A stretch of 64,000 nucleotides of DNA from Pseudobdellovibrio sp. (GTDB lineage Bacteria > Bdellovibrionota > Bdellovibrionia > Bdellovibrionales > Bdellovibrionaceae), in the NCBI GenBank assembly GCA_046293015.1, contig JBKBPU010000005.1, positions 5,372 through 69,371 on the forward strand. The letters are read 5' to 3'. Numbering within the stretch: the first letter of the stretch is position 1; every line of letters starts with the position of its first letter. Shown here piece by piece: positions 30,721 to 33,647 of the stretch. The notes below the pieces were generated by a model. It was not told the DNA's origin. It made no database searches and saw nothing but the letters and a program-made list of their open reading frames with translations. Both the position numbers and the translations under genes were made by a program.

Positions 30721-31422
30721 TTATTTACAGTTTAATCCTACATTTTTTTCTAAATTTAAAACACACTTTATAGACTTTACCTTTCCAGGATCATTGAGTG
30801 CGTCTACAAGGTTTGTTCTCTCAAATTTAAAGGTAGTGGAATTCGCCCATTTTGAATTACTAAACCCTTCATTTTTATAACTTTTCTCTAAAATTTTTTT
30901 ACATGATCCGTATTTACAATCCAACACTTGAAAAAGTCCTGAATCAGAATTGTAGCCGGCCTCAACATCTGCATCTGTGGAAAGAATTAAAAACTTTTTA
31001 TTAGGTGAGATCATCTCAGAATCGCCAGAGCCAAACTCATCGCAATCATTGAGACTAATATAATTATTACTGCCTCCCTCTCCTAAGTTGCCAACACGTC
31101 TTTCAATAACAAAACCCATATCACATCTAATTTCAAAAATCGAAGAACCTCCACCAGACTCAGCACCAATATCAAGACTCAATTTTCGCTCCTTAGAATT
31201 GGTGCATTTATAGTGTGAAATAAGATTTGCTTTCTTAGCGTCTGTTTTAATATTCACCCAAGAGGCTTGTAAATTTTCCTTATCAAATTTCCAATTAGCC
31301 AGTCCTCCGTTTTTATAGTTTTGGCAATCCTTTTTATCGAAGGATTTTAATTCTAATTTAGAGGATTCAGCCAAGCTTAAGTTGCAAGTATAAAAAATGA
31401 TAAAAGTTAAAATATTGAGCAC
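30721..31422 (-). CDS. Secreted Cys-rich hypothetical protein
   Basis: GTG start with AGGAG RBS, signal peptide and several Cys. Confidence 0.75.
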   Translation of the reverse strand: MLNILTFIIFYTCNLSLAESSKLELKSFDKKDCQNYKNGGLANWKFDKENLQASWVNIKTDAKKANLISHYKCTNSKERKLSLDIGAESGGGSSIFEIRCDMGFVIERRVGNLGEGGSNNYISLNDCDEFGSGDSEMISPNKKFLILSTDADVEAGYNSDSGLFQVLDCKYGSCKKILEKSYKNEGFSNSKWANSTTFKFERTNLVDALNDPGKVKSIKCVLNLEKNVGLNCK

Positions 31423-31764
31423 TTCTTCTCCTTGAAATAAAACCTATAAGAAATCCGTTTATATTCTTTTATTTATAAAAATTTAAATTGTTGCTAAGCG
31501 CTGGTCAACTAACCCAAAGCTTTTGGGGTTTTGCGAAAAAATAGATCTTGAGCCATTTAGACTACAATTGCAGGGGACAGTTAAGTTTTTAACAATAATT
31601 TTAATGGCAAGAGTTTTGGTCCCGTTAGCGCGATCAAATAAGCTATCCTTACAGATCTGATTGCTGACAGTCTCAAACAGAGCCTAAAGTCATTATATTA
31701 GATCTGACAAAAGGTTCGCTTTCAATGACCAAAAATCGACAAAGTGACATTCCCTTTTAATCAT

Positions 31765-31807
31765 ACCACTGTGAGTGGTGCAGTAATTTGCACCACTTTG
31801 GTGCAAA
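31765..31807. promoter_or_regulatory. Overlapping inverted-repeat (operator-like) array
   Basis: ACCACT-gtg-AGTGGT, AGTGGTGCA-N6-TGCACCACT and TTTGCACCA-N3-TGGTGCAAA, all overlapping. Confidence 0.65.
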
Positions 31808-31812
31808 TCTAA

Positions 31813-31841
31813 TTGCTTGTTACAACAACCCTATATATTAA
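31813..31841 (+). promoter_or_regulatory. Putative sigma70 promoter of the DUF4423 gene
   Basis: TTGCTT-N17-TATTAA, ending 7 nt before GTG 31849. Confidence 0.45.
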
Positions 31842-31848
31842 TGAACTT

Positions 31849-32601
31849 GTGGACGCAGAAAGTTTTAAAAGTATACTTCAGCAAGAATTTTTAAAAAGAG
31901 GAGCTAGAAATCCTAGGTATTCTCTTCGTAGTTACGCCCAATTTTTGGGTATACACCATAGCACACTTTCTGGGTTGCTATCTGGAAGAAGGCCGATTAC
32001 AAAAAAAACTGTTGTATCATTGTCTTTAAAACTGGGCTTATACCCATATGATTTTGTCAAAAAAGAGAAGAGAAATTTTAGTCTACCTAAGCACGAATTT
32101 TTAGAAGAGGACATTTTTAATCGTATTTCCGAGTGGTATTTTGATGCCATTTTAGAACTTTCAAAAGTTAAGTCGTTCGATTTCACAGTTAACAATATCA
32201 GCCGATATCTTGGTATTAACGAAGCAAAAGCCAGTATTGCGATAGAAACTTTATTAAGATTAAAACTTTTAAAAAAATCAAAAAATGGGTTCGAGATAGT
32301 TCACGAAAACTCGACGAATCTATCATCAAATGAAAAAACATCAGCTGCAATGAGAAAATACCAGAGATCGATTTTGGAAAAGTCTATTGAAGCATTAGAA
32401 CTAGTCGATCGGAAAGATCGCGATCATACATCTACCACTATGGCGATCCGAAAACGCGATCTTCCGAAAGCTAAACAAATTATGAAAGATTTTAGATATA
32501 AACTAACGGCCTTATTGCAAGAGAATGATAAAGACTTTGATGAAGTTTATCAGCTCCAGGTCTCTTTATTTCCGATAGGTAATCACAAGGAGGATTCATG
32601 A
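31849..32601 (+). CDS. TIGR02147 / DUF4423-family HTH regulator
   Basis: RNPRYSLRSYAQFLGI.HSTLS.LLSGRR HTH, ISEWYFDAILEL, and RDHTSTTMAI…VYQLQVSLFP motifs. GTG 31849 is the preferred start; the ORF track gives 31813. Confidence 0.88.
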   Translation: MDAESFKSILQQEFLKRGARNPRYSLRSYAQFLGIHHSTLSGLLSGRRPITKKTVVSLSLKLGLYPYDFVKKEKRNFSLPKHEFLEEDIFNRISEWYFDAILELSKVKSFDFTVNNISRYLGINEAKASIAIETLLRLKLLKKSKNGFEIVHENSTNLSSNEKTSAAMRKYQRSILEKSIEALELVDRKDRDHTSTTMAIRKRDLPKAKQIMKDFRYKLTALLQENDKDFDEVYQLQVSLFPIGNHKEDS

Positions 32602-33647
32602 AATATTTGTTTTTAATTTTGACTCTGTTTATCAGCTTACAGCCATTTTCTACTCTGGCTGCGGGACAAGACCGAGGCGGTGGCAAAGGTATCGTATGTA
32701 AGGATAATAAAAATCAAATCCAATCCGTAGAACTTCTTGATATATGGGAGGCGCGGCGTTCGGGTATTCAGTTTCCAAATTCTCCGGATAATGCTACGAA
32801 TCAGCTTACAAATGCTCTCGAACGGTCTCGAATACCAGTTTCTGAAATGTGGGGTGGTAGCCAATACCACTTTGACAATTTTTTTGCTCGAATAGCTTAT
32901 GATTTCTTAACTTGCACCGATCCTAAGCAGACTTGTCCGACCTCCACATATGCCTACTATGAACGTATTTACGGCAAAGCCTTACCTCTCTCAAACGATT
33001 CTCTTGAGGGTGATTTGAATCTTCCTGCCAATTGTGCTGTTGAACAAATAGTCTCCTATTACAAAGGTAATAGTTATTATTTGAATATGGATTTAGTTGT
33101 ACACATGAATGCTCTAAACTTGGCAGGCCTTGCGATTCATGAATCTATTTACCATGAGTTGTATTCCCTCAACTCTGAGGAAAACTCTCAAAGAGTGCGC
33201 CGATTTGTGTCTTTTGTGATGTCAGGTCAAACTTTACAGCCAAAAGTAAGCTATCTAAAGGCTCCATACATAACTTGCGGCAAGTGGGATAATGGATATT
33301 GGGATCGACTGAATTTTATGCAAGATCCAAAAAGCAAGACTCCGAAAATAATTGCGCTGATCGATTACCATGGAAGCGGCTATGTAATTAATTTTCATAA
33401 CGGCCAGGTTAGTTCAGCCACTCTAGAGCCAAATACGGATGTTGAAACATTTTACAATTGGTTAGTACGAAAGGACCTATCTCATAAAATCAAGATTTCG
33501 GGCGAAGCTACAGATATTGAGTTCCTGACTGAGTTCAGTTTGAATATTGTGTCAGGAGATGGTGTAATGGTGTTAGATAGACGAACTGGAAATGGGATAT
33601 ATCCTCGTGCGAAGCCTGAAAATGTCTCATGTCGATTGATTAAGTAA
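32598..33647 (+). CDS. Secreted hypothetical protein (GGG..VC…VELLD.WE N-terminal motif)
   Basis: Signal peptide followed by GQDRGGGKGIVC…VELLDIWEA; ATGA overlap with the regulator gene. Confidence 0.8.
   Translation: MKYLFLILTLFISLQPFSTLAAGQDRGGGKGIVCKDNKNQIQSVELLDIWEARRSGIQFPNSPDNATNQLTNALERSRIPVSEMWGGSQYHFDNFFARIAYDFLTCTDPKQTCPTSTYAYYERIYGKALPLSNDSLEGDLNLPANCAVEQIVSYYKGNSYYLNMDLVVHMNALNLAGLAIHESIYHELYSLNSEENSQRVRRFVSFVMSGQTLQPKVSYLKAPYITCGKWDNGYWDRLNFMQDPKSKTPKIIALIDYHGSGYVINFHNGQVSSATLEPNTDVETFYNWLVRKDLSHKIKISGEATDIEFLTEFSLNIVSGDGVMVLDRRTGNGIYPRAKPENVSCRLIK

Follow-up and report, generated by a model that had tools for sequence, protein, structure and literature searches.

A conserved three-half-site palindrome array as the probable operator of a TIGR02147/DUF4423 regulator gene in Pseudobdellovibrio sp.

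The locus described here lies in a stretch of 64,000 nucleotides of contig JBKBPU010000005.1 from Pseudobdellovibrio sp., which as a whole will be called the window. It comprises an array of short palindromes, a putative weak sigma-70-type promoter that the array abuts, a gene encoding a regulator of the TIGR02147/DUF4423 family, and a partner gene encoding an exported protein, which overlaps the end of the regulator gene (Table 1). The array is very probably the cognate, private operator of the protein encoded directly downstream. It is assigned to this protein because it is conserved, because its distance from the start codon is fixed, and because its variable bases track the recognition helix of the adjacent protein. 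A preliminary description of the same DNA had suggested such a role, and the ortholog conservation, the fixed geometry and the residue-base covariation presented below all argue for it.

Table 1. Features of the regulator locus, in coordinates of the window
Feature	Position	Strand	Remarks
ACCACT, fourth half-site	31765..31770	+	Seen in this window only
Distal half-site D, TGGTGCA	31776..31782	+	Orientation of the promoter-proximal arm; GGTGCA invariant in 11 orthologs
Proximal palindrome P, ATTTGCACCA-CTT-TGGTGCAAAT	31786..31808	+	Centre at about -52 from the start codon
-35-like hexamer TTGCTT	31813..31818	+	TTG invariant in orthologs
-10-like hexamer TATTAA	31836..31841	+	7 nt between hexamer and start codon
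TIGR02147/DUF4423 regulator gene	31849..32601	+	250 aa; GTG start, TGA stop
Shine-Dalgarno sequence of the partner gene, AGGAGG	32588..32593	+	Within the 3' end of the regulator gene; read from the sequence
Partner gene, 349-aa exported protein	32598..33647	+	ATGA overlap with the regulator gene; translationally coupled

The family assignment of the regulator, already made in the preliminary description, is secured by the fact that the protein exceeds the cut-offs of both hidden Markov models, with 97.9 bits against NCBIfam TIGR02147.1 ('Fsuc_second'; cut-off 50, E 6.5e-28) and 128.9 bits against Pfam PF14394, which is DUF4423 (cut-off 30, E 2.1e-37). The best profile matches of its N-terminal 75 residues are the HigA antitoxins 2icp and 4mcx (E 4e-6 to 1e-5). 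In an AlphaFold2 (AF2) model with a predicted local distance difference test score (pLDDT) of 85.8, which rises above 90 over residues 1-60, the protein is divided into an XRE-like five-helix head (residues 1-66, with helices at 3-20, 26-33, 37-45, 52-61 and 67-73), a low-confidence linker (68-85), a winged helix (87-150) and, after it, two long helices (166-185 and 202-224). Even though the curated threshold of Pfam HTH_3 is narrowly missed (22.2 bits for a cut-off of 23), the fold, together with the covariation, supports the view that the head is an XRE-type helix-turn-helix (HTH) domain, whose recognition helix is predicted to span residues 37-45 (with H37 and G42 in this protein). No full-length match was found in the PDB with Foldseek, which returned domain-level similarity only, to MarR, ArsR and HigA (E of at least 0.02); the winged helix in particular weakly resembles the domains of MarR, ArsR and CggR (E of at least 0.02). 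This genome of 2.9 Mb encodes 11 TIGR02147 paralogs, related genomes encode up to 24 each, and homologs are present in 46 of 61 related genomes. A full-text literature search yielded no paper on TIGR02147, no paper on leaderless transcripts in Bdellovibrio, and DUF4423 only as an entry in a protein table, for Bd3700 in a proteomics study (PMC12546842). The same search gave no published function of the family and no published operator, the latter in agreement with the earlier statement that the DNA target of this family is uncharacterised.

The array is made of three overlapping inverted repeats, present as first described. Two of them are perfect, with arms that are 100% complementary: AGTGGTGCA (31774-82) and TGCACCACT (31789-97) form a repeat with arms of 9 nt and the 6-nt spacer gtaatt, and ATTTGCACCA (31786-95) and TGGTGCAAAT (31799-808) form another with arms of 10 nt and the 3-nt spacer ctt. 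In the third, arms of 6 nt, ACCACT and AGTGGT (31774-79), enclose the trinucleotide gtg. The core of the proximal palindrome P (31789-31805) consists of TGCACCA (31789-95), the CTT spacer (31796-98) and TGGTGCA (31799-805). Of the four half-sites originally counted, only three are kept in orthologs. The fourth, ACCACT, is out of register with the 3-nt-spacer geometry, is missing from all 10 other orthologous upstream regions, and is probably fortuitous; the array that is conserved in the alignment has three half-sites, not four. The 17-bp sequence TGCACCA-N3-TGGTGCA occurs once in the 2.92-Mb genome, even when one mismatch is allowed. Likewise, no further regulon members were detected with at most one mismatch in the genome itself or in the ortholog contigs, and the matches with two mismatches found in either appear fortuitous. 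A dispersed repeat was considered and rejected, AGTGGTGCA being found 23 times in the genome but without any other cluster.

Downstream of the array, the sequence reads TTGCTT, 17 nt, TATTAA, 7 nt and an in-frame GTG at 31849, which places the TTG at -36 and the -10-like hexamer at -13 to -8 relative to the start codon. In the preliminary description this had been taken as a promoter followed by a start codon without a Shine-Dalgarno sequence. The sequence is as stated there, although as a promoter it is made of weak hexamers. The position of the GTG, 7 nt after the -10-like hexamer, is confirmed by orthologs that begin at the same codon, and no purine-rich Shine-Dalgarno sequence is found before it.

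As no ortholog above 50% identity is present in 60 related reference genomes, orthologs were drawn from metagenome assemblies, where 13 proteins with 75-83% identity were recovered out of 5.8 billion searched. Their N-termini, of the form M/V-D/N-A-E-x-F-K, match the GTG at 31849, and most of them start with ATG. Eleven distinct ortholog loci could be aligned from -110 to +12. On the 5' side of the array the DNA of these loci cannot be aligned, and the upstream genes differ from contig to contig, being a beta-lactamase and an acetyltransferase, rpoA-rplQ-redoxin, or a recombinase fragment. Within the aligned segment, the invariant columns are GGTGCA, TTTGCACC, TTGG-GCA-A, the TTG of the -35 and the A of the -10 TA, the three half-sites are nearly invariant, and each locus has exactly one array. 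The distance from the TTG to the start codon is constant, at 35-36 nt, and in the first two bases of the -10 hexamer the A is invariant and the T is kept in at least 90%. The 11-locus alignment thus shows what would be expected of an operator, namely conservation of the element itself against flanks that are not conserved. The annotation of these orthologs deserves a comment. The gene calls of four of them (P0005, P0007, P0008 and P0010, at loci L042, L052, L050 and L051, respectively) begin 20-54 codons early, so that operator and promoter are translated as protein (HRFGAK, WCSILHRFGAK, GAGICTTLVQI). These over-extended translations were the first hint that the palindromes are conserved there, and such early start calls look like a systematic risk of mis-annotation for leaderless genes.

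The same architecture recurs among more distant relatives, studied in 139 homolog loci (24-83% identity) from 46 related Bdellovibrionota genomes. A perfect palindrome of the type xxxxxCA-N3-TGxxxxx is found upstream in 55 of them, and in 52 of these 55 an in-frame start codon follows 49-55 nt past the palindrome centre, most often at 51-52 nt. When perfect palindromes with arms of at least 7 nt and of any sequence were sought upstream of the 139 loci, the 3-nt spacer was dominant (45 of 105); a control on coding regions gave 14 palindromes in all and none with this spacer. Whereas the CTT spacer is shared by 24 of the 52 loci, the arms vary from paralog to paralog, with TGGAGCA, TGTACCA, TGTGACA, TGTTGGT, TGCGGCA, TGTCCCG, TGTAGCA and TGTTCCG among others. 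In a set of 41 representatives with less than 60% identity, a third half-site with at least 6 of 7 matches, in the orientation of the proximal arm and 21-25 nt upstream of it, accompanies the palindrome in 33 cases, against 7 in the opposite orientation and 4 downstream, so the three-half-site layout of the window is the layout of the family. An opposite-orientation partner upstream of the distal half-site D, in turn, is seen in 7 of the 41, no more commonly than in controls.

The promoter geometry is also kept. In paralogs the best -10-like hexamer most often starts at -12/-13 from the start codon. When the loci are aligned by their palindrome centres, at least 90% of the sequences have the majority T at the first base of the TTG; exact TTGs begin preferentially at -36/-35, with 19 of the 41 representatives within -36 to -34. 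These are the canonical positions of both elements if transcription begins at the first base of the start codon. A Shine-Dalgarno-like 4-mer at -16 to -5 is present in only one of the 41 regulators, compared with eight of nine downstream partner genes. The fixed distance between operator and start codon across relatives (52 of 55), together with this near-absence of ribosome-binding sequences, fits a leaderless regulator mRNA, and the leaderless geometry first noticed in the window extends to orthologs and to 52 paralog loci. The nearest paralog in the same genome (L002, C1:296995-297870, outside the window) has an in-frame TAA and is possibly a pseudogene. Its array, GCTCCAAA-t-TTTGGAGC-N7-TCCAAAAT, is followed by TTGTCT-N17-TTTATT-N6-ATG and has a mirrored layout, in which the palindrome is distal and the orphan half-site proximal.

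The variable bases of the half-sites are not distributed at random among these proteins. For the 41 representatives, the mutual information between the seven operator positions and the variable columns of the first 80 residues was calculated and expressed as permutation z-scores. Base 3 with residue 37 is the top pair of all those tested (z 10.4), followed by base 5 with residue 42 (z 6.7) and base 4 with residue 42 (z 6.2), the next best pair having a z of 5.0. At position 3, G goes with His (5/6), C with Ser or Asp (4/4), A with Gln (2/3) and T with Pro, Ala, Val or Leu (28/28); at position 5, C goes with Glu or Asp (12/13), G with His, Lys, Gln or Arg (13/17) and T with Leu (4/8). The window conforms to this scheme, its His37 being paired with TGGTGCA. 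According to the AF2 model, residues 37 and 42 occupy positions 1 and 6 in the predicted recognition helix, and these two helix positions are the classical base contacts in the 434 repressor (Gln28 and Gln33). The operator bases therefore covary with the residues expected to contact them.

This covariation does not derive from shared ancestry, since base 3 is scattered over the phylogeny like shuffled labels and well-supported sisters switch base and residue together. On a maximum-likelihood tree built from residue 79 to the end, leaving out the HTH, base 3 changes about 12 times, which is no fewer than with shuffled labels. Among the sister pairs, L033 (TGTAGCA, Ala) and L071 (TGCAGCA, Ser) are one base and the matching residue apart, L059 (TGTTGCA, Pro) contrasts with the window and L058 (TGGTGCA, His), and L074 (TGAGTAC, Gln) contrasts with L079 (TGTGGAC, Val). 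These patterns suggest a simple and chemically sensible code by which TIGR02147/DUF4423 proteins would read their half-sites. The search for private palindromes that covary with recognition-helix residues, proposed at the outset as a test of the operator, was thus strongly positive when run computationally. An operator architecture and a reading code are new information on TIGR02147/DUF4423.

From these data, a mechanism can be proposed in which a dimer of the regulator most likely binds the core of P (about -62 to -42) through its two N-terminal XRE-type heads. His37, which opens the recognition helix, would read the G at half-site position 3, and residue 42 (helix position 6, Gly here) would sit over positions 4-5. 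A further subunit could occupy the third half-site D (about -73 to -67), two helical turns upstream. Transcription from the adjoining promoter would start at 31848/31849 and yield a leaderless bicistronic mRNA that encodes the regulator together with its ATGA-coupled partner. Because the operator is unique in the genome, the circuit would be a self-addressed autoregulation of the regulator's own operon.

Several observations weigh against this interpretation or limit its reach. The strict palindrome filter is failed by 84 of the 139 homolog loci, for which reason the architecture is to be regarded as a trait of a subfamily. The CTT spacer is conserved yet strand-asymmetric, which is not accounted for by a symmetric dimer; the winged helix, as a second putative DNA-binding domain, might explain the asymmetric CA-CTT-TG centre or the orphan half-site. 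A generic promoter scan left the TTGCTT/TATTAA pair below its threshold, because both hexamers are weak. In Escherichia coli, translation of leaderless mRNA starts poorly at GTG, the codon with which the window gene begins. Finally, a 39%-identical relative (L017, G060:C33:65130-65867) carries a TGGTGC-N8-GCACCA-CTT-TGGTGC array with the start codon 68 nt from the palindrome centre and GAGGG before it, and is apparently a leadered variant.

Regarding the direction of control, activation, or a dual control like that of the C proteins discussed below (with the regulator activating when scarce and repressing when abundant), is the reading we lean towards, because the site lies wholly upstream of the -35 and the core hexamers are weak. 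The role of a lambda-cI-like repressor, to which the preliminary description had pointed, is not implied by an operator upstream of the -35, where activation, of the kind known from cI at OR2/PRM or from C proteins, is at least as likely. The most serious competitor accepts the same operator and the same protein, but makes the latter a pure repressor exerting negative autoregulation, as HigA-type and other XRE autorepressors do, for example by blocking the region of the UP element and the C-terminal domain of the alpha subunit or by holding RNA polymerase at the promoter. We regard it as possible, though the less likely of the two. The N-terminal domain is nearest to HigA antitoxins, which are autorepressors, and some paralogs have near-consensus -10 boxes (TATAAT in L014; TATATT in L015 and L060) that might need no activator. 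Against this, about 5 bp separate the site from the -35 hexamer downstream of it, and overlap with the -35, the -10 or the +1 is not seen in the 52 loci of fixed geometry, a placement atypical for steric repressors; the hexamers of the window itself are also weak.

An altogether different explanation would see in the repeats alternative RNA or single-stranded DNA hairpins, working as an attenuator or a 5'-UTR switch read from an upstream promoter. Two mutually exclusive hairpins do share the central arm, the minimum free energy structure contains the proximal hairpin, and in orthologs the flanks change in a pairing-preserving manner (AGT/ACT, AGC/GCT, GGT/ACC, AAT/ATT, some with T:G). However, the folding of the region 31400-31900 is not significant with respect to shuffled sequences (z -1.89, 10 of 200 as good), the same region has no match in Rfam, and no T-run or terminator-like site is present that would qualify it as a terminator or attenuator. 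Moreover, the hairpins are followed by the conserved TTG and -10, both at their canonical spacing from the start codon, and an RNA model predicts no covariation of stem bases with two residues of a recognition helix. Such a switch is therefore very unlikely.

It is just as improbable that the array is the target of another factor, be it a shared global regulator or a recombinase for which the array marks the left end of a mobile cassette. Such a reading would agree with a conservation that starts exactly at the array, with an upstream context that is different in every contig, and with the recombinase or conjugation (TraC) genes near some of them. The promoter is, however, the expected left edge of a conserved operon in any case, the sequence varies with each paralog and tracks the recognition helix of the adjacent protein, its distance to promoter and start codon is fixed, and a sequence that is unique in the genome is no global-regulator motif. 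As a separate observation, some ortholog cassettes occur near genes of conjugation (TraC/TraG-type ATPase) or recombinase fragments (L042:8495-8795, L053:918-1394), and the regulator cassette may move horizontally. Lastly, it is scarcely credible that the palindromes arose by chance in an intergenic region rich in AT: exact 7-mer triple arrays are only modestly enriched and thus not vanishingly rare (17 in the genome vs 2-9 in shuffles), and the fourth half-site does look accidental, but a chance origin of the three conserved ones is refuted by their invariance in 11 orthologs against unconserved flanks and by the recurrence of the architecture in 52 paralog loci.

Two other repeats should be mentioned. 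The 426-bp intergenic region that holds the array also contains two copies of AGATCTGA, each with the palindrome AGATCT, at 31652-31659 and 31699-31706 of the window, 47 nt apart; both are closer to the divergent gene, which encodes a secreted protein of 233 aa (30721-31422, minus strand). Elsewhere in the genome, at C1:5146-5190 (outside the window), there is a three-half-site array of the CA-N3-TG type, TTGGAAC-N9-GTTCCAA-c-TTGGAAC, with 14-bp palindrome arms. It was dropped, no open reading frame being present at the expected distance on either strand.

Among known systems, the closest working analogue is found in the C proteins of type II restriction-modification systems, such as C.PvuII, C.AhdI and C.Esp1396I, with their C-boxes. 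In C-protein circuits, an autoregulating XRE-type HTH protein and palindromic arrays go together with a leaderless transcript and with a cargo gene transcribed along with the regulator (PMC2632904, PMC2175313), and their leaderless translation was inferred from the fixed distance between operator and start codon, the same argument as is used here (PMC2632904). The TIGR02147 locus would share with them an XRE-type HTH, the leaderless mRNA and the co-transcribed downstream cargo, and, like them, it has half-site palindromes upstream of the regulator's own gene and operator motifs that diverge among members. Nevertheless, C proteins are small and single-domain, whereas the 250 aa of the TIGR02147 protein make up an XRE-like head, a winged helix and a hairpin of helices. 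In C-boxes, the last of four half-sites is 17-18 nt away from the start codon and the -10 consensus cannot be recognised (PMC2632904). The array described here consists of three half-sites, leaves 40 nt to the start and stays entirely upstream of a -35 and a -10 that can be recognised, and the cargo is a tagged protein for export in place of a nuclease. With these differences in protein size and domains, half-site number, spacing, promoter elements and cargo, the locus works like a C circuit without being a member of that group.

The phage lambda regulator cI, transcribed from PRM, offers a second comparison, in that it has a leaderless mRNA, tandem operators, and a site adjacent to the -35 that can activate its own promoter. 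The TIGR02147 locus likewise combines a predicted leaderless regulator mRNA, tandem sites and a site beside the -35, but has little else in common with lambda. In lambda, three complete 17-bp operators are shared with a divergent lytic promoter, whereas the present locus has a single palindrome and an orphan half-site, without a divergent promoter within about 350 bp; the centre of the palindrome is at -52 rather than -42, and there is no phage context. HigA-type antitoxins, which have an XRE HTH, are the proteins that the head of the TIGR02147 protein matches best in sequence, and they bind palindromes in their own promoters. They differ from it in that the TIGR02147 locus has no toxin partner and an operator clear of the core promoter, and in the extra C-terminal DUF4423 part of about 165 aa.

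The partner protein has no match in Pfam or NCBIfam. Immediately behind the signal peptide, its mature N-terminus has an invariant tag, G-Q-D-R-G-G-G-K-x-x-V-C, and HE..Y and NS.RVRR are other invariant motifs. In all ortholog loci long enough to include it, the regulator is followed by a gene for a partner homolog of 337-347 aa (L042:4792-5832, L046:4743-5774, L049:880-1905, among others). The partner of the window and those of the orthologs are only 38-40% identical, compared with 75-83% for the regulators and operators that are the same, which means that regulator and operator have been conserved while the cargo behind them has diverged or been replaced. Some 25 distant paralog loci (L013-L041) also have a gene for a signal-peptide protein directly behind the regulator, with a gap of -1 to about +20, and the mature ends of these proteins bear a tag of the type G-x-E/D-(x0-3)-G-G-G (AGREGGAGD, AGKEGGGAD, AGNEGHGGDG, AGSEGRGGGD, AGGDRVNNGGG). 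This points to a general module made of a regulator and a tagged exported protein.

A wider conjecture, to which we give only a small chance, is that the TIGR02147 paralogs of predatory bacteria represent a large number of mutually orthogonal, self-addressed switches. Each would recognise nothing but its own address of three half-sites, by means of a code of two residues at helix positions 1 and 6, and would drive one translationally coupled exported protein with a conserved N-terminal tag; this tag, or the unexported precursor, could be sensed by the winged-helix/DUF4423 part of the regulator. If true, the module would be a hitherto undescribed type of transcriptional feedback device coupled to secretion. 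The TIGR02147/DUF4423 family is large and rich in paralogs, and related families exist in Fibrobacter and other phyla. What this unstudied family gains from the locus and its relatives is a concrete operator, a promoter architecture in which the palindrome stands at about -52 and the start is predicted to be leaderless, and a code that can be tested by swapping residues and bases. This makes the family experimentally tractable and offers a natural set of orthogonal transcription factor-operator pairs, besides connecting the regulators with a group of tagged exported proteins of predatory bacteria.

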